64,000 bases of DNA from Naegleria gruberi (lineage: Eukaryota), in NCBI GenBank assembly GCA_000004985.1, contig GG738854.1; one strand, 5' to 3'. Below the pieces are notes generated by a model. It worked only from the letters and a program-made list of their open reading frames with translations, ran no database searches and was not told where the DNA came from. Below, piece by piece: positions 29,603 to 44,600 of the stretch; within the stretch, counting starts at the first letter, position 1, and every line of letters starts with the position of its first letter. Both the position numbers and the translations under genes were made by a program.

Positions 29603-30997
29603 TTATTTCTTCTTCAAACCTTCAGAGAAAGCATTGACCATGGCAACCTTCTTCTTGTTATGATAAGTTTGTTGAGTTGAACTGCTTTCAGCAGCAGAAG
29701 ATCTTTGTTGCATGTTAGCAGACCAATAGTTATTCATCATCTTACTACCAACATTTGAATAGACAGTTCTGTCAACCATATTATTGTTACAATCATTCAA
29801 ATCCTTAATTAAACCTAAACAGAATTCATCATTGGCACTAACAGAAGCCTTAACCTTTTCAATAGCTTGAGTTAACAAATTTCTTGCTTGTTCTAACTTG
29901 TTTTGATCAGCCAAATTCTTAGCTTGTTCCAAAGCTTCACCAGATTCAACTCTGTTTCTTTGTACATCCAATTGATAATTGGCATCCTTCTTATTTGGTT
30001 CAACAGTTGTATTTCTATGAATGATAATTTCAAATCCAACTGCTTCATTTTCAGTATCTACAATATTGAAATAGAAGAGTGAAACCTTTGCAAGTTCTTG
30101 ATCAAGGAGTGGACCATTGAGAGCAGGAACTGATAACACAAAGACAACATCCTTCTTTTCCTCGGAATAAATATCACCAACATTAACCTCGCATCCTAAA
30201 CCATTTGGTAAATCTTCTTTTCTATAAGTTGTGAAAACCTTCTTCAATTTAACATTAGCATTTGGTTCAATTTTAACTTTGATATTTTGACCAACAACTG
30301 AAATCAAACCACCAATAACGTTACCAAATGCCTTTGGAATGTCATCAGTTGTTTGAAGGAAGTAATATAAACCATTACCAGCTTGAGAAATTGAAGTTAA
30401 CATATTAGCATCTGTATCAGTACCAAATCCAAATGTGAAAACTGTCAGGTTAGTTCTAATTTCTTCATGAATCATTGTTGTCATCTTTTTAACAATTTCA
30501 TTAGTATTTGTAATACCTTCATTAGCTAAACCATCAGTAAATAATAGAAGAGAAGTAACTTCATTGGCATTTGTTCTTTGACCAATAAGTCTCAAACCTT
30601 CAAATAAAGCACCAGATAAATTTGTACAACTTCCTGCTCTGATATTGGAAACAACTTGTTTGGCCTTTGATCTACCACTTTCGTTCATATTAGTAAATTG
30701 AAGGCTAGTTGAAATATTACTATCAAATTCAACGAGAGCAATTCTATCGGTTGGCTTTAATTGATCAAACATGAATGCTAATGTTGATTTGACCATTTCA
30801 ATTTTACTGCCTGCCATTGATCCTGATTTGTCAACTACACAAATAAGATCAATTCCCTTTCTTTCTTTTCTTTCATCGGCTTCAAATTCTGGAGCCTGTA
30901 ACGTTGCCATACAATATAAATCTGTTTCCTTTTGATATGGTAAATTGATGTATTCACAATTACCAGTAAAGACAATTTTAGTATTGGAAGAAGACAT
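29603..30997 (-). CDS. von Willebrand factor A (vWA) domain protein
   Basis: MIDAS motif DKSGSM within LICVVDKSGSMAGSKIEMVKSTL. A vWA fold and a coiled C-terminal region follow. Confidence 0.7.
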   Translation of the reverse strand: MSSSNTKIVFTGNCEYINLPYQKETDLYCMATLQAPEFEADERKERKGIDLICVVDKSGSMAGSKIEMVKSTLAFMFDQLKPTDRIALVEFDSNISTSLQFTNMNESGRSKAKQVVSNIRAGSCTNLSGALFEGLRLIGQRTNANEVTSLLLFTDGLANEGITNTNEIVKKMTTMIHEEIRTNLTVFTFGFGTDTDANMLTSISQAGNGLYYFLQTTDDIPKAFGNVIGGLISVVGQNIKVKIEPNANVKLKKVFTTYRKEDLPNGLGCEVNVGDIYSEEKKDVVFVLSVPALNGPLLDQELAKVSLFYFNIVDTENEAVGFEIIIHRNTTVEPNKKDANYQLDVQRNRVESGEALEQAKNLADQNKLEQARNLLTQAIEKVKASVSANDEFCLGLIKDLNDCNNNMVDRTVYSNVGSKMMNNYWSANMQQRSSAAESSSTQQTYHNKKKVAMVNAFSEGLKKK

Positions 30998-31855: not shown

Positions 31856-34800
31856 ATGAAACAACTCTTCATCTCGTTGCTTCTATTAATTATTGTTGAC
31901 TTTTCACATAGTTATCCTCCTTCAATCACAACACAATCATCTCTGCCTCCCACATCGCCATCATCATCAGGATTTAATTTGATTCTTTATGTTCAACCTG
32001 GAAATACAGTAAATAGTAAATTGACCAATAGTACTTTCTGTACTTTTAAAGAGTCACCATGCACTTCCATTCAACAAGCCATCGATCAGGTACTGGAAAT
32101 GTACTATGATAAGAAAATAATTGAACAGCCAAGTGCTCGTTTCATTCTAATGCCCAATCTCTCTGCAGGCCATCATCCATCGAAAAGACTCATCTATGGA
32201 AAGGATCAGTGTGATAACTCTTTCAATAGATGGTTTTACTACTTATTACTTGAATCACATTCGAATGAAGAAATAATTGAATTTCAATGTGAGGGAGAAA
32301 GTCTTGTCAACCCTCAAATGTTTTTTGGATTGTACTTGATGAGACTCAAGTTGAGGAATACCTTATTGCGTATTGATGAACGCATTGTTGTCTTGTACAT
32401 GTATGGAGTACATGCCACAAATTCTAGAATTGGATTTACTAGAAAGGGAGATGATGTCATTATGAAATATTCACTCCTTTACAGTTATTTTGGAGATGGG
32501 GATATTCAATTGGAGGCAAGTGATATTAATATTAATGGATCTATTGTTGAGCGAGTTACAATGTACTCGACCAGTAAGACCAGTATGAACATTACCCACT
32601 CAAGGATCACACAATTCAAGTTTACCTCATCATCTGGTGGGGAATTTTCTAATTTTGATATTTTAATTTCCTTTTCGAAACTTAATAATACTGAATGGTA
32701 TATTAGTAACTTTGGAAATGTGCAGTTGGATCAAATTGATATTTTCAATGATTTTCAAATCTCAATATTTTACACTAGCTCTATTTCTATTAGTCAACTA
32801 TACACGAGAGGGAACAATGTACGATTTTATGCAATCTTTGTGGGGATTAGTGGTGGTATCCAAATTGAAAAATCATACTTTAATTCACTCACAAATTTTG
32901 GAAATTCGAAAAACATATTTGACATTACTGCTACACCTATTTTAAATATCGAAAACTCTGTATTTTCCAACAGTAATCCATTATTTGGCGTGGCTGTTTG
33001 CGGTGAATTGAGGGGATACAATTTACAATTTATTGGAAACAAGGGTCCTTGCATATATTCTGATCTTGATAAAGGATTGGGTGTGAGCAGTGTTTCTATT
33101 TCACAATCAAAATTCATCAACAATTCATGTAGTGATTGTTCTGGAGGAGCTCTATTCTTGAGAGGTGTTGGATTTTTGGGTTTAGATTCCTCTTTTGTGG
33201 GAAATACTGCTACCAATGGAGGAGCATGTTACATTTCGGCCAGCTCAATAGGATTGAGCCAAGCCCAATTCATGGACAATAGAGCAACATTGAAAGGAGG
33301 AGCTTTTTATGTTGAATTTGTGGATAGTGGTTCCATGAATGGGGCATTTAACTTTGAATGTATCAATAACGTAGCTCAATACTCTGGAGGTTGTTACTAT
33401 TCTACTAACAGGACCTTAACATTTGAATTAATTGATCCAATTTTGGAAAGAAACCGTGCAAACTCCTATGGTGAAACATTTGGATACCCATTTTTTGATT
33501 TGAACTATCTCATTACCGTAACATATGGAAACGGAACAATATATACAGGTGTTTCTAACTCTTTTCCAGAACTTTCATTATATGCAGGTCAAATTATTTC
33601 AACCATTGAAATTACATTGTGGAACAATCGAACAGATCGAGTATCCTATTTGGAGTTGCCAATGGAGATTGAAGTGAACACGTCTCTTGTATTGCTCAAT
33701 TATGAACAAAAGAAAAACCCCTTCAATTCGACAATAACAATTGAGAATATCTATTTCACTCAAATGGCTGTGCTTCCTTCTCTCCAAAATTTCTTCACTT
33801 TACAGATGAAGATTGAGAATTTCAATCTCACAGCAATGGTCACTGTGCTGGATTGCCCTCACGGCTTATCTCTAGTCCAAAGTGTTGCACAAATTGGTAC
33901 TCTTACCTGTATTTTGAATCCAACAATACCTTATCAAATCATTATACCAGTCGTTTCAGTTGTTACACTGATTATTGTTGGAATTATTGCATTTTGTACT
34001 TTTTTCATTATTAGAATGACTCTTGTCATCGTAAGAAAACTTAAATTACTCAATAGAAAACTGGAAGCTGAAAAGAAAATGGAATCCAAACTATTACAAA
34101 AGCGAGTTGCCCTCATGGATGATGACAATGATGAGATGAATGAAAAATCATCACTTTTAATCAACTCAAATGGTGAAAGCAGCAATAACTACCATTCCCT
34201 GATGGATCATTCTTCCTCATGGATCATATCTATTGATGACATTGAGATTTTGAAAAAGATTGCTGAAGGAGCAAGTGGTTGCATTTATCTTTGTGATTGG
34301 AAGGGCACTAAGGTAGCTCTTAAAACACTTAAAAATCAAATGGAAGTCGATAATGATATCCTTTTTGAACGGGAAGCAGCATTGCTCTCAACACTTAGAC
34401 ATCCCAATATTGTTCAATTTTTTGGTATCATATTTTGTTCTAGGAAATACATAGCTGTAGAATATTTGGAAAAGGGAAGTTTGGACAAGTTGATTTATGA
34501 TTCAAAAACTGGACAGGCCAAGTTGAATTTTACAAAAAAAATTGAGATTCTTTATGGGGTTGCAAAAGGAATGGCCTATCTACACACCATGAAACCAAAA
34601 CCAATCATACACAGAGACTTGAAACCTGGAAATATTTTAATAGACATCAACTTGACACCAAAGATTTGTGATTTTGGATTGAGTAGAGTTTGGAACAATT
34701 CATTTTCCAACCAATCAGCCCCAACCATGAATGTTGGAACTTTTTTCTACCTTGCCAATGTATGTTATTTCTATTTTATCACATTCTGATTATTAACATT

Positions 34801-35241
34801 TTCGTTTAGGAAATGATATCTGGAGATCAATATAACCACAAGGTAGATGTTTACAGTTTTGGAATAATAATGTGGGAATTGTTTTTTGAGGAGAGCCCTT
34901 ATATTAATCAACATTCTCCCAAGCTCTTTAAATATGGAGAGGCGAGAGATGATGATATTTCACACTTGGGTTTCAATGCATTAGGAAAGGTATTGAGCGG
35001 GGAGAGACCTACCATTCCATTCCATGATAAATCTTCAGTCAAATTATGGATTGCTGATTTCCTATTGGAACACCAATCAAATAATGACAAAATATTGGAT
35101 GCCACTACTAATGCAGTTATTCAGTATGTTGACTTGATGAAACAATGTTGGAGTGGAACTCCATCTGAAAGACCAGAATTTACAGAAATCACATTGAGTT
35201 TGTCAAATTTGTTGGATCAAGTTAGTGAATTCAAGATATAA
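31856..35241 (+). CDS. Receptor-like kinase: signal peptide, extracellular right-handed beta-helix (pectin-lyase / polymorphic-membrane-protein-like) repeat domain, single TM helix and a cytoplasmic TKL-like protein kinase
   Basis: Signal peptide MKQLFISLLLLIIVDFSHS. The extracellular domain carries repeated GGA[LI]/NxxxxGGA beta-helix motifs. TM helix IIIPVVSVVTLIIVGIIAFCTFFII. Kinase motifs are GASGCIYLC...VALK, HRDLKPGNILID and DFGLSRV. The intron at 34760..34809 (GTATGT donor, TAG acceptor) joins FYLAN to EMISG...VDVYSFGIIMWE. Confidence 0.75.
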
Positions 35242-35388
35242 CTTGACAGTTTTCCAACTTGTCCAGTAGATCCAACAGCGATGCCTGACATTTCGCATTA
35301 CTAAAATTAATTTCCACTTCCACTCAACATTACGATGAAAAATAAATACATTTCATGATGATAATCCACCAATAAAAATTTAGGGCCA

Positions 35389-37300
35389 TTGGATACAGAT
35401 TCAAACCACGCCACATTTGTAGCTCAAATTAATTTACAAGATTTGAGATTTTATCATTCACCAAAAAGTTATTTACCAGAAAAGGGATGGTTATTCTTTT
35501 TTGTTGGATCTGATAATGGCATTCATTCACAAGATATGAAGCAACCATTTTCTTTCTATTGGAATGGTTCAAAGAATGATTTGAAAAGAGTGGAAAAACC
35601 TGAAGATGTCGCGATTGAGTTGGTAAATCGTTTAATTTTTGATGAATCTTGTGAGCAATTGGAATTTCAATATCCAGACAAGTATGAGTATTATTCTACT
35701 TTCTTTAAATTGTTTGGTCATTCAATTTATCATACCTATCCTGAAACTACAGTGTTATTGGCCTCAACAGGTTATGCATTCTTTTTAGAGAATGAAATTG
35801 AGATAAGAAAGAGAAAGGGAGTTCAATCTCTGATTAGTAGATATGAAAGAAGAGGAAAATCTGAATATGTTTCACCTTCTAATGTTTCAATTCTATCTCA
35901 AGATAGCAATGATAATGATGGACAACATAACATGTTTGAGACATTTTATCCTAGTGCTTTGATATTCAGGAGATATAGCTCTATACACCAGAGTAGAATC
36001 ACTGATTTGGATAATAATTCATATCTTCCATTATTTCTCAAGAATTATAAACCAAAAATCAGTGAAGAACCAACAAAATTTTGGAGAAGAACCGATTTTT
36101 TGACTCCAGGTCAAGAAATTAAAGCTCCTAAAAAGATGCTTACTGCAAATTTTGTAAAGCAAGATCCTGTAACTGATTGGGAGGATCAATCACTTCCTGA
36201 AACAGTTTCAAACAAGGATAAGTGTTTCAAAATTAGCTGTATACTCTCTCCTGATGAGTGTGCAGATTTAAGAATTTGCTCCTTACCTTTCTATACCAAT
36301 ATCCAATCAGAATATCCAACAGAATATAGAAATTGTGAAAGAGCTCTATTGAAGAGTCAAAAATTAGCTGACCTATTGTGGGATAGAATTAGCCCATACT
36401 TTAATTCAACAGATTTCAAGAATGTACAACCGTATGGATTTGACAATAGTGGTGTATGGAAACCAATGGAAATTAATCCATGTTTCCGTTTCTCAGTCTA
36501 CACAACAGATGAAACAACAGGAACCTATTTCAAACCTCACAAAGATGCTCAATTTGTTAAGAATGATAATGAAAAGAGTATTTTCACAGTTTTACTCTAT
36601 TTGAACTATGTGAGATTTGGTGGTTCCACAACTTTCCTCCAAAAAGTTAGAGATGAATCAGAAGATGGATCTGAAATGACTTTTAGAATTATTCATGATC
36701 AATCACCTGAATCAGGAGCTGTTGTTATATTCAATCATGATCTTTATCATCAGGGTTCTCCTGTTGAACGTTATGAAAAGATTATTTTGAGAACTGAGAT
36801 TATATTCAAGAGAGTTGACTCTTTGAGTGTTCCTCGTTCTGATTATAGAAATACACAAGATTATCTCAAAGTTAAACAGTTAATTGAGGAATCAAATGAA
36901 TTAGAAAGACAAGGAGATACCAAACAATCACTCCTCAAATATCTTCATGCGTTGGATGTTCAGACAAACATTTCTCCATCTCTCCAATGGTCTGATTTGA
37001 GTAATAAGAGTCATTTGGAGAGATTGCCTGAGGAAATTATTGGTGTTATTTGTTCCTTCTTAACAAGTAGTCAAATTGCAACACTAATGTTGCCACTTTC
37101 TTCTTTATTGAACTCTTACTCTAGAAATCCAACAATTTGGAAGGAAAAATATGAACAAGAATGGAAAGATGAAAACCAAGAAGAACAAGAAGAGGAAGAA
37201 GTTGAAGAAACAGATATTTTATGTTTTTATGATGAAAAACAAGTCAAATGTCAAAGAAATGAAACTATTTTCATTGAGGCATTAAAAGAATATAAGGATT
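35389..37300 (+). CDS. 2OG-Fe(II) oxygenase (prolyl-4-hydroxylase/PhyA-like) domain protein with a C-terminal F-box. The 3' boundary is unresolved.
   Basis: HxD...H...R triad candidates are FKPHKDAQF, FNHDLYHQGSPV and RTEIIF. The F-box is LERLPEEIIGVICSFLTSSQIATLMLPLSSLL. The same frame runs without a stop into the first exon of the next gene (see findings). Confidence 0.5.
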
Positions 37301-37329
37301 GGTATGCATTATATGTTTCACGTAAGAGT

Positions 37330-38394
37330 ATGGACAAGTTCTGGTCTCCAGTATTACTCGATACAGGTCGTAGCACCTATCGTTATTCTTTACAAAATAG
37401 TGAAACTGCAGAGAAGGATTTAATGATGTGCAGAAAACCAAATCATCCACAGTATGTATTATTCAATGGATTCAGAATTATAATATTTTAATATAGTTTC
37501 AATTTACCAGGGTTTGGATTGGAAGATATTCTTTCTGGAGCTAGAGCTGCAGATAATTTATACTTGACTCAGCCTCTTCCACTCGTTGACAGTTGTGGAA
37601 GAATTGAAGATTATAAGAATTTCAAGACTTTGTTATTCCAATTGTATGCAAATGATTTGAAAGTGAAATTTCAAATTCACCCTTTCGTGTTAGCAATTCC
37701 ATTTTCTTGGACAGAAAATGAAACTTTGCAGGTAAAGAAATTAATTTACGAACTTGGAATTCCATTATCATGCTTGGTTGACTCTTCCAAATTAATTGCA
37801 CTTAATTATTCTAAACCTAATTGCATTGTTTTGAACATTTCATCAAGTGGTGTTGGTTGTGTTCCAATAAGAAATTATGAACCTTTGAATGAATTGAAAT
37901 TATTCGAACCATTCAATATTGCCGAACAAGTTTCATCTAATATGGAAGTTGGGGATAATATCTATGGAGTGTTGAGATTGGTTCTTACCATTCCACCAAC
38001 TCCACCAGAACTTTACGAAACTCTAAAAGAAATATGGGAAGGATTCATCTATGAATCTGAAATTTCATTGGAAGTGGGTGGATATGAGAGAAGTTTTGAT
38101 GTAACTAGATTATTTGATGCTGGAAACCAATTTTATATTACTGCCTTTGAGGCATTAAGGACAAGAATTGAATCTTTGAATAAGGGTGACGCTAGTAATG
38201 CTGAGCATGATGTTTTGATTTGTGGTGGATTTTCTTCAGTAAAAGGAATGAAAGAAAGGTTAACTCGTGAGATTAGAGAAATTTATCCAAATATCAATTT
38301 AGAATTCAAATCTGATGATATGGAAGTTATTGGAGGTGCTAAAATATTTTGCAGTCTGCCAAGCTTTAAGGAACAACTCCAGGTTAGTCAATAG
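37330..38394 (+). CDS. Small divergent actin-related protein of about 335 aa, possibly Arp10/Arp11 dynactin-type, two exons
   Basis: Exon 1 spans 37330..37451 and exon 2 spans 37497..38394. The intron at 37452..37496 has a GTATGT donor and TAG acceptor and restores the frame. Actin motifs are VLLDTGRSTYRYSL, HPFVLAIPFSWTENETLQVKKLIYELGIPLSCLVDSSKLIAL, LICGGFSSVKGMKERLTREI and VIGGAKIFCSL. Confidence 0.6.
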
Positions 38395-38405: not shown

Positions 38406-39554
38406 TTAAGCCAGGCCAATATCTAATGCCATCATGGCCACAAATCCAATAAAAAAGAATAAAATTGAAATCTTTGCCAAGATTTGACTTTTTGAAGTTT
38501 TTGACATGGTGAGTGGAACTAACTCTTCAATCACTACTACAAGCATGACTCCAGAGGCACAAGAAAGGGCATACGGTAAAATTGTAGATGAGATAAATAC
38601 CAATAAACAACCAAATAGACCTCCTAATGGTTCAGTCAATCCAGAGGCTGCTCCTAAAGCAAATGCTTTCCATATTCTTCTGGAGAGAGATCCATTAGTT
38701 TCAGATCCAAATATTGGAAAGGTTACAGAGATACCTTCTGTAATATTCTGGATAGCAATTGAAAATGAAAGAGCAATTGCACTAAACAGTGTAGCTCCAG
38801 AACTTGCAGAATTGGCTGCCGCAGCAAAGGCAACTCCCACGATAATTCCTTCTGGAATATTATGTAGAGTCATGGCTGTGAAAATAACCCAGCTCTTGTG
38901 TCTATTTTCTATTTTATGATGTTCCAAATCAATTTCATCTTGTTGATTAACATTATCAGAACTTTCAATTTGATTCATTTCCACGTTCTCTTCCACCGAA
39001 TCATTTACTTGAATTCCTCTACTTTTTTTCAATTTCTTCTCAATAAATTGTTGAATTTTGTGAACTAATCCATCAAAAATCATAATAGCAACAACTCCAA
39101 CTAGAAAACTCAATCCAACAACTAATAGCATTTCAAATTTTGTATCATCTTCTCCAAAATGATTAATGGCAGGTAATAATAAACTAAAGAATGAAGCACC
39201 TAACATGACACCAGCTCCAAATGAAATTGACAATGGAATCAAGACATCATTTGTGAATGAAACATTTTGATATTCATTACTAGTTTTCCAAAATTTACCA
39301 AAAACCAATCTTCCAAGAAGGTTAGAAAATTTAGAATTTACAGAATTTCTACTTTCGAATTTGGAACAATACGAACAAAAGATCAAACTAGCTCCGAGGG
39401 CAGTGGTGGCCGAATTGATGAGTGTGAAAATAAGAGTTTGAAACACTGGATGAATACCCAATAGAAAATCCGTAACATGTCCATTTTGAGTTGTGTTAGA
39501 ATATGATGGGAGGGAATCATTAGCAAGTAAATAGAGAGGGAACAAGTCGGACAT
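38406..39554 (-). CDS. ZIP-family metal (zinc) transporter (ZupT/ZIP11-like)
   Basis: ZIP signature HNIPEGIIVGVAFAAA. A histidine-rich cytoplasmic loop (LEHHKIENRHK) and about 8 TM helices. Single exon. Confidence 0.8.
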   Translation of the reverse strand: MSDLFPLYLLANDSLPSYSNTTQNGHVTDFLLGIHPVFQTLIFTLINSATTALGASLIFCSYCSKFESRNSVNSKFSNLLGRLVFGKFWKTSNEYQNVSFTNDVLIPLSISFGAGVMLGASFFSLLLPAINHFGEDDTKFEMLLVVGLSFLVGVVAIMIFDGLVHKIQQFIEKKLKKSRGIQVNDSVEENVEMNQIESSDNVNQQDEIDLEHHKIENRHKSWVIFTAMTLHNIPEGIIVGVAFAAAANSASSGATLFSAIALSFSIAIQNITEGISVTFPIFGSETNGSLSRRIWKAFALGAASGLTEPLGGLFGCLLVFISSTILPYALSCASGVMLVVVIEELVPLTMSKTSKSQILAKISILFFFIGFVAMMALDIGLA

Positions 39555-41619: not shown

Positions 41620-44600
41620 ATGACATGGCCAACAACACAACAACAAACATGGAAACAACAAGGCTACATTGCATGTTGTATCATTCTTGTGTTATTGTGT
41701 TCAACATGGCATGTAAATTCTTCAATTCAAGGACCTGTCAATTACTTTGTCAAGACAATTGAAGGCAATACATTTAATTTAGATACAGTGGAAGCAAAGT
41801 ATGCATACATGTTATCTCCATCAGGATTAAGTCTTGGACTAGATGATGATTTATTTGTTTCAGATATTGATAGACATTTAGTTTTTAGAATTTATGATAA
41901 TTTATCAACTGCTGAAGTTTATGCAGGTTTTGGAACTAGTGGATTTAATGGAGATGGTTTGTCAGCAATTGATACATTGTTTAATACACCTACAGCTATA
42001 TCAGTCAATCCACTAAATGGTGATTTGTATATTGCTGATACACTCAATAATAAGATTAGGATAGTTTCGAAAAACTCTAAAATAGTTTCATCAATTTCGC
42101 AGAGCACATTTAACAAACCGAGAGGAATTCATGTTTCTCCAAATGGATTTGTTTACATTGCTGATACTGAAAATAATTTAATTAAGAAATATGAAATTTC
42201 AACAAGACAAATTTCCATACTTGGTGGAGGTGGATATCTGAGTGGAGAATATAATGGAGTGGATGCAAAATTATTGAAATTACAATCACCAATGAATTTA
42301 TTTGTGGTTTCGAATGGAAAGAATGATATAGTTTATTTCACAGATGAAGAAAGAGTCAAGTCAATTGACGAAAATGGAATTTATAGAATGGTGGATGGTG
42401 GAATGCCTCAATCAAATTTGTAAGTTTGCTTCCAGCATGTGTTTACATTTATTCGAATTATTTCGTATAAAAATTAGATTTGGAATTTATGTTTCGGATC
42501 AAGGTGAAATATATACGTCATCACAAAAGAATCATTTCATTCAAATGAAATTAACAAAATCATCACAAACAAGTATTTTTATAGGAAGTTCTTCATCTGA
42601 AAGTGGATATAGTGGGGATAATCAGCAATTTAATTCACCCAACATCAAATTTTATGAACCATCTTCATTGGTTGTCACTCAAAATTCTATTCTAGTTGCA
42701 GATAAATCGAATAATTGTATTCGAAAGATTAATTTACAAGATATGATGGTTTCAACACTTGCAGGTGGACTTGTAAATCATGCAAATGGTGAAAATATTT
42801 CTCCGCTTAGTATGCATTCAATTGGAAATGCTCAATTTCCATTCAAGTATAAGAATGATTTGTATTTTGTGGAAAAAAACAATATTTTACGAAAGGTTTC
42901 GAATGGAAAGATGACAACTGTATTGGGATGTGAAAAATCACTAACTTATCCAGCAAACATTCCCCAACGTACCTTCGTTCTAATAATTTCATTATCTTAT
43001 GCTGGAAATGGAAATGTTATGTTTTTTGCAGGTCTAGAAAATTCACTTTACAATTTCAATCTGGATTCTCAAAACTTGACGCTTATCTCAAAACTTGATT
43101 ATTATACAACTTCATTTGCCTTAATTGGTGATTCAGTTCATAATGCAACAATTTATTATAGAACCGATTTGGGAAAAGTTTGTGTTTTTAAGAATTTAGA
43201 GGCAAATCCTTCATATTGTTTGTCCATTCCAGTAACAGGAGCTGTAGATCACATTATTGTGATTCCTGATTTTAGTTATAACGGAACAAATTCCATATTT
43301 TACTATTCAGATACTTATAATAGTATTAATGAATATATTGATTACAAGAATGGTTCAATGTCAACTCGCATAACACAATTGCCAACTGTTACATCATTTA
43401 GTGGATTTTCACACTATGATAGATATTTCTATTTTTGGAATATGGGACAAATTTATGAGATGCAAATGGACACTTACTCCATAAGAAAGTTTGCAGGAAT
43501 AGATGCCTTTAATGTTTCTAATACTTTAGTTTATGCCTTGGGTTACAATGGTGAAAATATACCTTTAAATAGTTCAGCTCTGTAAGTTTTTCATTCATGA
43601 ATAATTTCAAACATGGAAAGTTTTACACCAAGTACTACCAGAATAGGATCTGAAATATATGTCACCAGCCTTTATGGCATTAGTGAAATATCCAATGGAA
43701 GAATATTTACAATTGTTGGATTAACTCCAACCTCAAAAACGATAAGTCCACTCATCTTAATGAGAGATCCAATGAAAAAGATAATCTACTATATTGATCT
43801 TAGAACTTTAAAGCAATATGATGAGAATACAGGTATTTCAAAATCCTTGTCCACATCAATTTTCTCATCACCAGCCATTCCTTTCAATGATTCACCCTTT
43901 TTAATAATGAATACATATCCATTAAAACCGTTTGGACTATTCTCAACATTTGATAGGAAGATCTATTTTAAGGACAATTGTAGAATACTTCGAATTGATC
44001 CAGAAACATTGAATTTTGAAACTATTATTGGAAATTCTTGTTCAACTCTAGTTGCTGGAGTTAAGGTATGTTTTTGAGATTTACAATTTCTAAAATTGTT
44101 AGGGATTGGATTCAGGATGCCCTACGTTTCAAGAAATGAGTGGAATGACATTTGATCAGACCAATGGTGATATACTAATATCCTTAGAAAACTATAAGAT
44201 TTACAGATATAATTTACAAACACAAATGTTATCACTTGAATTTACATTTGCTACAAGTACTTCTTATTCTCCTGATGGCATAATAACTAATCAAACTTCT
44301 GTTGGGAAAATTACAAATATCCGACATCAAAATGGATATCTATATTTCAGTACAAGTGTTGCTATTAGAAGAATAGAAAAGTTATCTGATAATACATACT
44401 ATTTGAGAACTCTTGTTGGAAATTCAGAAAAAGGATATTCAGGAACCAATTTACCAGCACTTCAATCTTCTCTTGATACTCCTTCATCATTCTATGTGAA
44501 AAATAATGGTGATATTATAATTTTGGATGGTTCTGAAGCTTATTATGTCAGAATGTACCAGCAAAGAACTGGATTATTGATAGATATTGCAGGATCAAGA

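Follow-up and report, generated by a model that had tools for sequence, protein, structure and literature searches.

A predicted prolyl 4-hydroxylase–F-box–actin-fold protein of Naegleria gruberi and its family in other eukaryotes

It is established that the F-box of F-box proteins in Skp1–cullin–F-box (SCF) ubiquitin ligases binds Skp1, and that the module C-terminal to it recognizes substrates. The best-known protist oxygen-sensing route is hydroxylation of Skp1 by PhyA and, to our knowledge, protists lack HIF. Oxygenases that themselves carry an F-box include KDM2A and KDM2B, JmjC demethylases with F-box structures in the PDB. Sporadic F-box fusions are also found in the JMJD6 family (PMC2938197, Table 1), and the Dictyostelium F-box JmjC dioxygenase JcdI/Fbxo13 is active and associates with Skp1 (PMC9485057). 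Here, we describe a locus on the plus strand of a 64,000-nucleotide stretch of Naegleria gruberi DNA (contig GG738854.1; this whole stretch is "the window") that is predicted to encode an oxygenase of a different class, an F-box, and an actin fold in one chain. A first-pass annotation of the locus had suggested that an oxygenase with its own F-box would be a direct physical link to SCF ligases. The link is a reasonable idea, and it already has precedent in another oxygenase class, namely in the JMJD6 fusions, JcdI, and KDM2A/B.

Gene structure and family breadth

Read against its homologues, the region 35389–38394 (+) appears to be a single gene with one 45-nt intron and a product of up to 986 residues. 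The predicted domain order is an optional DUF1963-like segment, a prolyl 4-hydroxylase (P4H)-type oxygenase, a helical segment, an F-box, an acidic linker, and an actin fold. An initial search with the open reading frame (ORF) returned three proteins, two of which are Naegleria proteins with PF13640 and PF00022 in one chain (N. gruberi, 868 aa; N. lovaniensis, 854 aa), and the spliced window protein is colinear with them across the junction. Residues ~206–985 of the spliced product align with eight full-length homologues of 800–920 aa from N. gruberi, N. lovaniensis, N. fowleri, and Willaertia magna, at 33–36% identity. In the genomic DNA of N. lovaniensis, one exon (locus L001, 8561–9844) runs from the C-terminal portion of the oxygenase through the F-box into the N-terminal portion of the actin domain, so the fusion there is independent of any predicted splice. 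The features of the window gene, as predicted, are as follows (HMM, hidden Markov model; 2OG, 2-oxoglutarate).

35365–35397 (+), open 5′ end of the frame; in-frame TAA at 35362–35364, no ATG until 35536
35398–35712 (+), DUF1963-like N-terminal segment, residues 4–108 (Pfam PF09234, 27.1 bits)
35536 and 36136 (+), other in-frame ATGs, Met50 and Met250 (translation)
35932–35934 (+), ATG of Met182, alternative start (homologue-like N-terminus length)
36076–36120 (+), N-terminal strand motif KFWRRxDxLxPGQ (homologue alignments; strands in the model of the N. gruberi homologue)
36196–36828 (+), P4H-type 2OG/Fe(II) oxygenase domain, residues 270–480 (Pfam, PDB profile search, AlphaFold2, Foldseek)
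36538–36546, 36748–36750, 36778–36780, and 36811–36813 (+), oxygenase site residues: HxD, His454, Lys464, and Arg475, respectively
36829–37002 (+), two-helix segment between oxygenase and F-box, residues 481–538 (family HMM, model)
37015–37152 (+), F-box, residues 543–588, LERLPEEIIGVICSFL...IWKEKY (family-level profile matches)
37153–37293 (+), acidic linker, poorly conserved, residues 589–635 (codon-usage score +0.45)
37294–37451 (+), actin-fold domain, first part (DWY helix, internal Met, phosphate loop VLLDTGRS, HPH at the D-loop position)
37452–37496 (+), intron, 45 nt, GTATGT...ATATAG (splicing restores the family motif)
37497–38391 (+), actin-fold domain, remainder, to residue 986 (Pfam Actin, 37.2 bits; family profile)
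38392–38394 (+), stop codon TAG (same alignment position as the homologue ends)

The window is AT-rich eukaryotic DNA (~33% GC) with short introns. A mechanical ORF lister gives 35389–37491 (+) as 700 codons, the TTG "start" being purely a convention of the lister, and a second ORF, 37519–38394, downstream in a different frame. By our own estimate from the GC content, ~7% of random codons would be stops, and an open frame the length of 35389–37491 is thus far beyond chance. The frame is open from 35365, its first in-frame ATG is codon 50, and it continues without a stop through the ATG at 37330–37332 and VLLDTGRSTYRYSL at 37351–37392. That the oxygenase/F-box frame runs on into what was taken for the next gene had been remarked in the first-pass annotation, and translation of 37330–37392 confirms it. 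The motifs named there were also all located: HKD at 36538–36546, NHDLYH at 36733–36750, LRTE at 36787–36798, and LPEEIIGVICSF inside 37015–37152, a stretch that begins LERLPEEIIGVICSFLTSS.

The intron was placed by reading the DNA against the Naegleria homologues. The in-frame TAA that ends the mechanical ORF sits inside it, and splicing yields KPNHPHFNLPGFGLEDILSG, which fits the family motif HPHF.L.GYG.DD..G. Its donor is identical to that of an intron in the upstream kinase gene (34760–34809). The hexamer GTATGT is not enriched in the window and is therefore of no use for finding introns.

Three explanations had been offered for the missing stop, and only that of a fusion stands, in a stronger form: there appears to be no separate actin-related protein (Arp) gene. 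Two adjacent genes, with an Arp gene that starts at the ATG at 37330 and shares the frame by chance or is co-transcribed by read-through, would fit the position of this Met, which is roughly where an actin-like protein would begin, and its presence in the Naegleria and Willaertia members. However, the residue is not conserved outside Heterolobosea, and is absent at this position from the dictyostelid and other members. In addition, it is preceded by a DWY motif whose Trp, 11 codons upstream, hardly varies among 46 members; in the model of the N. gruberi homologue, this motif is part of a confident helix leading to the first actin strand. No stop codon intervenes, one N. lovaniensis exon covers both halves, and the colinear single ORF recurs in dozens of proteins from distant lineages, transcript-derived ORFs included. 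We thus regard two genes as very improbable; the ATG at 37330–37332 is best read as an internal Met and not as an Arp-gene start, and the actin-fold region, rather than being a mis-separated gene, as the C-terminal domain of the same conserved protein.

The third explanation, that an unrecognized, stop-creating intron ends the upstream gene between 37100 and 37330, draws on the fact that introns in this genome are short and easily missed, with two documented nearby. It is hardly credible, because the stretch matches the linker and DWY helix of the homologues residue for residue, its in-frame coding scores are positive, and GTATGT donors are absent from it. Both linkers of the single gene show coding-like in-frame codon usage (+0.18 and +0.45), and the intergenic stretch 35242–35388, read in the same frame, scores −0.71. 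Two false genes would result if the locus were split at the internal ATG, when the true product has three or four predicted domains.

To establish the breadth of the family, HMMs were built for the oxygenase, the helical segment, the F-box, and the actin fold, and an exhaustive HMMER search of 1.84 billion representatives was made, which returned 299 proteins at E <= 1e-30. All four modules occur in order in 43 of the ~170 sequences retrieved, the rest being mostly fragments or subsets. A word-indexed profile search added four N. lovaniensis paralogues, one N. fowleri protein, and one from Willaertia magna, all with the same Pfam pair. Dictyostelid members come from Tieghemostelium lacteum, Cavenderia fasciculata, and Dictyostelium purpureum, and further members from Physarum polycephalum, Arcella intermedia, Pellita catalonica, and the chytrid Rhizophlyctis rosea. 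The Tieghemostelium, Cavenderia, and Rhizophlyctis entries are genome models. Those from Physarum, Arcella, and Pellita are ORFs from assembled transcripts, so the whole architecture is on one mRNA there. In the databases, members are named "hypothetical protein," "F-box domain-containing protein," or "Fe2OG dioxygenase domain-containing protein." There is just one copy of the family gene in the window, and its product appears, from these alignments, to be a divergent member (33–36% identity) of a family present in Heterolobosea, Amoebozoa, a chytrid, and GC-rich metagenomic eukaryotes.

Some members (the observation concerns P0040, P0057, P0110, and P0098) have other N-terminal modules: NADAR, WWE, or ankyrin repeats. 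Both WWE and NADAR relate to ADP-ribose. The swapping of N-terminal modules (DUF1963, WWE, NADAR, ankyrin) suggests that targeting is modular. In D. purpureum, the model has 2127 aa, with tetratricopeptide-repeat, lipase, and STAND-NTPase regions, and may be a merged gene model. The GC-rich branch (P0003, P0017, and P0018) comes from metagenomic contigs. The genes on the P0003 contig are intronless, and the four largest (separase, a kinase, a Brix protein, and the family member) lie on the same strand, a layout that resembles that of kinetoplastids.

The three domains and a candidate role

The oxygenase matches Pfam 2OG-FeII_Oxy_3 (PF13640) over residues 368–466 with 33.1 bits (cut-off 27; homologues, 30–52 bits). 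It is thus of the P4H type, and no JmjC match was found in it. A single-sequence search of the PDB gave only a chance match, to Skp1 (E = 0.55). The PDB profile search recovered P4Hs from B. anthracis (E = 1.5e-10) and Chlamydomonas (E = 1.5e-8), the collagen P4H of PBCV-1 (E = 4.9e-5), and human P4H-TM (E = 4.9e-5), with H384, D386, and H454 aligned to the P4H His, Asp, and His. Neither PHD nor PhyA chains were among its matches at E <= 1. An AlphaFold2 model of window residues 255–600, built with 30 family sequences, has a double-stranded beta-helix fold (mean predicted local distance difference test [pLDDT] 86.7, predicted template modeling score [pTM] 0.80). When this model was compared with the PDB using Foldseek, the top matches were vCPH (5c5t, 9.7e-10), Pseudomonas PPHD (4j25), and Cr-P4H (3gze), the P4H matches being at 15–20% sequence identity. 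The earlier claim that a 2OG oxygenase core lies in the same polypeptide as an F-box is borne out, and the oxygenase fold, that of a prolyl hydroxylase, is supported three ways (Pfam, PDB profile search, and AlphaFold with Foldseek).

H384, D386, H454, K464, and R475 (window numbering) are among the residues invariant in 17 diverse members. Of the core written as HKD...H...RTE in the first-pass annotation, the HxD...H triad holds up, and the Arg of "RTE" is replaced by Lys in some members. K464 lies at the distal His454 + 10, as in collagen-type P4Hs, and aligns with the Lys of the B. anthracis P4H. The invariant K464 is thus the better candidate, more likely than the Arg of "RTE" to bind 2OG. 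In PHD-type enzymes, 2OG is bound via Arg, not Lys. Together, the fold and the catalytic residues support a P4H-type enzyme with an intact metal and 2OG site, predicted to be active.

The first-pass annotation had also drawn a connection to PhyA, which proved weak in its specific form. If the oxygenase were PhyA-like, it would hydroxylate Skp1 itself, with the F-box holding the enzyme on its substrate. Dictyostelium PhyA is indeed among the structural neighbors (6t8m, E = 8.7e-8), at rank 17 in the Foldseek search and as a fold neighbor only, and the lineages of the family overlap those reported to have Skp1 hydroxylation. By sequence, however, the domain groups with collagen-type and bacterial P4Hs, no PHD/PhyA chain is matched, the residue at His + 10 is the Lys of collagen-type enzymes, and the conserved actin-fold domain is left unexplained. 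Taken together, we consider such a role quite improbable.

The two-helix segment that follows the oxygenase is detected by the family HMM in most members, and forms helices 236–253 and 257–274 (model numbering) in the AlphaFold2 model, with pLDDT >90. Upstream of the oxygenase, the equivalents of the KFWRR motif are strands in the model of the N. gruberi homologue (pLDDT ~93).

The F-box region is helical in the AlphaFold2 model. A profile made from 21 family segments gave 50 PDB matches with E <0.01, every one of them to an F-box-containing protein. FBXL5 is the best (5.7e-15), and the matches include KDM2B (5.9e-12), FBXW8, KDM2A, Skp2, Fbxw7, Cdc4, and beta-TrCP. Against F-box-like, the aligned segments of the Naegleria homologues score 24.7 and 28 bits, and further members pass the Pfam F-box or F-box-like cut-offs with 28.6, 31, 36.4, and 40.2 bits. 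What had been called a clear F-box is therefore clear for the family, and not for the window segment alone, which is under the Pfam threshold. As judged from these profiles, the F-box is solid at the family level, and the window copy seems to be a divergent version, one that also lacks the usual C-K-R-W stretch. The acidic linker that follows has a disordered equivalent in the model of the N. gruberi homologue.

In the downstream ORF, Pfam Actin scores 37.2 bits, and the family profile matches conventional actins over residues 6–358 with E = 6.5e-44. The best PDB matches of the actin-fold profile are conventional actins, not Arps. A model of the full-length N. gruberi homologue (pLDDT 82.4, pTM 0.76, with 137 residues disordered) superposes on actins with a target-normalized template modeling score of 0.76–0.82 and a root-mean-square deviation of ~3.5 Å. 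From profile and model, the domain is predicted to have the complete actin fold, with all four subdomains. Compared with beta-actin, D11, G13, and G301–G302 (the GG of the adenosine loop) are kept. Eight other nucleotide-site positions, S14, G15, Q137, D154, G156, D157, G158, and H161, are R, S, S, N, S, S, S, and G in the window copy, and these positions vary across the family. The domain is thus probably actin-shaped without hydrolyzing ATP.

At the position of the actin D-loop, there is a family-specific HPH[FY] motif with a one-residue insertion (37435–37518, residues 683–695). Naegleria, dictyostelids, Physarum, and Arcella have the motif in common, and its Pro is not invariant in all paralogues. 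Given that the D-loop of actin makes filament contacts, HPH[FY] may mark the functional surface of the domain. We also considered its Pro as an intramolecular hydroxylation substrate. The Pro is replaced in some paralogues, and the loop is of low confidence and undocked in the model, so this was set aside as an idea only.

The explanation that we think probable, though far from assured, is that one gene encodes a member of a P4H + F-box + actin-fold family, and that the protein is a Skp1-docked hydroxylase acting on a partner of the actin fold. In this scheme, the protein would be held on Skp1 by its F-box, whether within an SCF ligase or within a non-SCF Skp1 complex. The actin-fold domain, in the position of a substrate module, would recognize a partner; because the module C-terminal to the F-box has an actin fold, this partner would most plausibly be actin itself or one of the proteins that bind to its surfaces. 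The hydroxylase in the same chain would then modify a Pro or other residue of the partner or of the complex, in a reaction dependent on O2 and 2OG, and oxygen and metabolic state would in this way be coupled to ubiquitylation of a cytoskeleton-linked target. The most likely role, we infer, is that of a receptor that binds Skp1 and in which O2-dependent hydroxylation is coupled to recognition by the actin fold. JcdI shows that a Skp1-bound oxygenase is feasible (PMC9485057).

Several observations weigh against this scheme. When scanned alone, the window F-box segment reaches 17.1 bits against F-box-like (E = 0.0046), below the cut-off of 24.3. In P0003 and P0017, the recognizable F-box has been lost and the rest of the protein kept (P0018, of the same GC-rich branch, keeps its F-box, with 28.6 bits). 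Given the pTM of 0.76, the F-box helices may be packed onto other parts of the protein and not free for Skp1; the value suggests a fixed arrangement of domains that is equally compatible with a partly buried F-box. The residues that bind nucleotide are mostly lost, so the actin-fold domain may not behave like actin. Finally, the DUF1963-like segment (open frame from 35365) is without an ATG start.

Some of these points are also what would be expected if the single gene encoded an F-box protein without an SCF ligase, the F-box serving in a non-SCF Skp1 complex or as an intramolecular scaffold, and the hydroxylase being targeted by the actin fold. A packed architecture, the lost F-box of one branch, and the missing C-K-R-W signature of the window copy all favor this, as does the requirement of JcdI for Skp1 co-expression to stay soluble (PMC9485057). 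On the other hand, the F-box profile recovers the Skp1-binding F-boxes of Skp2, Fbxw7, Cdc4, and FBXL5 at E 1e-8 to 1e-15. We regard a role outside SCF as a distinct possibility, albeit one that we doubt.

In a bolder version, this is a widespread and ancient three-part enzyme of amoeboid and flagellate protists (a prolyl hydroxylase built into an SCF receptor, with a modified actin as its recognition module). Turnover or modification of a component of the actin cytoskeleton would then be directly dependent on O2 and 2-oxoglutarate, and there would be a second oxygen-sensing route through SCF, independent of PhyA. This version is tentative, and we think it rather unlikely. The family is nevertheless a concrete candidate for a further link between O2/2OG, ubiquitin ligases, and the actin cytoskeleton. 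Its presence in Naegleria (including N. fowleri), Dictyostelia, and Physarum makes it experimentally accessible in dictyostelids.

The 5′ end and neighboring genes

The DUF1963-like segment (PF09234, YwqG-like) was found when the N-terminal 171 aa were scanned alone, with 27.1 bits against 23 (profile positions 20–115 of 216). It was not reported when the whole ORF was scanned with Pfam, and the segment has no match in the Naegleria and Willaertia homologues, N. lovaniensis locus L001 included. Its codon usage is coding-like (+0.34), and there is no stop before the conserved part. A canonical upstream exon is excluded, because no GT donor follows any ATG in 35242–35388; from the last upstream ATG (35282) to the candidate acceptor at 35383, there is none either. 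A splice from the kinase gene is phase-compatible (donor GTGAAT at 35225, acceptor at 35383), but would require a 159-nt intron with an atypical donor, when the documented introns are 45 and 50 nt long and both have GTATGT donors. We judge it unlikely, and the least likely of the options. Those that remain are a non-AUG start or an assembly error, and a start at Met50, Met182, or Met250, in which case what lies upstream of it would be a remnant in decay. A start at Met182 would give an N-terminus as long as those of the homologues.

Upstream, separated from the fusion ORF by a gap of 147 bp, lies the gene of a large receptor-like protein kinase (31856–35241, +), in the same reading frame as the oxygenase gene. 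The protein carries a signal-like segment at its N-terminus, a repeat of the Chlamydia-PMP type, and a stretch that looks membrane-spanning, and its kinase domain is split by a phase-0 intron of 50 nt (34760–34809, GTATGT...TTTAG). Downstream, a ZIP-family metal transporter gene (38406–39554, −) is convergent with the fusion gene. Only 11 bases separate the fusion stop (38392–38394) from the end of the ZIP ORF at 38406, so the 3′ untranslated regions of the two genes must overlap or be extremely short. Farther away, 29603–30997 (−) codes for a protein that has a VWA domain and a CPSF6-like RSLD region, and the two overlapping NHL-repeat ORFs at 41620–43585 (+) probably belong to a single gene interrupted by an intron or frameshift.

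Comparison with described systems

The closest relatives are uncharacterized members of the family: P0001 in N. gruberi; C9374_003586, _008213, _013538, _001249, and _010640 in N. lovaniensis; FDP41_008733 in N. fowleri; ABK040_003979 in Willaertia magna; DLAC_07506 in Tieghemostelium lacteum; DFA_07689 in Cavenderia fasciculata; and HDV00_011729 in Rhizophlyctis rosea. They share with the window protein the same domain order and the KFWRR, HxD...H...K, LPxE (F-box), DWY, HPH[FY], and GG motifs. The window gene differs from them in its extra DUF1963-like segment, in the position of its intron, and in being only 33–36% identical to the nearest.

Among P4Hs, Cr-P4H-1, PBCV-1 vCPH, the B. anthracis enzyme, and human P4H-TM have the same HxD...H triad and Lys at His + 10 as the fusion oxygenase. 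Those enzymes are stand-alone and secreted or membrane proteins, whereas the fusion protein has no evident signal peptide or membrane segment. PhyA of Dictyostelium and Toxoplasma is, as a cytoplasmic P4H-superfamily enzyme tied to SCF and a structural neighbor (6t8m), similar in setting, but unlike the fusion protein, it has neither an F-box nor an actin-fold domain. The C-terminal domain resembles actin and the orphan Arps in having the actin fold over its full length and in retaining D11, G13, and the adenosine-loop GG. It differs from actin in that S14, G15, Q137, D154–G158, and H161 are not conserved, in having HPH[FY] at the D-loop position, and in not being free-standing.

The combined P4H + F-box + actin architecture is not described in the full-text literature that we searched. 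Of two papers on neighboring subjects, the main text of the Dictyostelium actinome paper makes no mention of an oxygenase, hydroxylase, or F-box, and neither a P4H-type oxygenase nor an F-box protein with an actin domain appears in the main text and supplement of the Skp1-interactome paper. The nearest in kind are KDM2A/FBXL11, KDM2B/FBXL10, JcdI, and the JMJD6-family F-box fusions, which, like the fusion protein, have a 2OG/Fe(II) oxygenase on the same chain as an F-box. This is analogy and not membership, as their oxygenase is JmjC, whereas that of the fusion protein is of the P4H type (PF13640). The oxygenase is N-terminal to the F-box in the fusion protein and C-terminal in JcdI, and an actin fold takes the place of the leucine-rich repeat, CXXC, or PHD modules of the JmjC F-box oxygenases. 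Thus, F-box oxygenases as such are already known; what sets the fusion protein apart is the P4H class of the oxygenase, its N-terminal position, and the actin-fold C-terminal domain.

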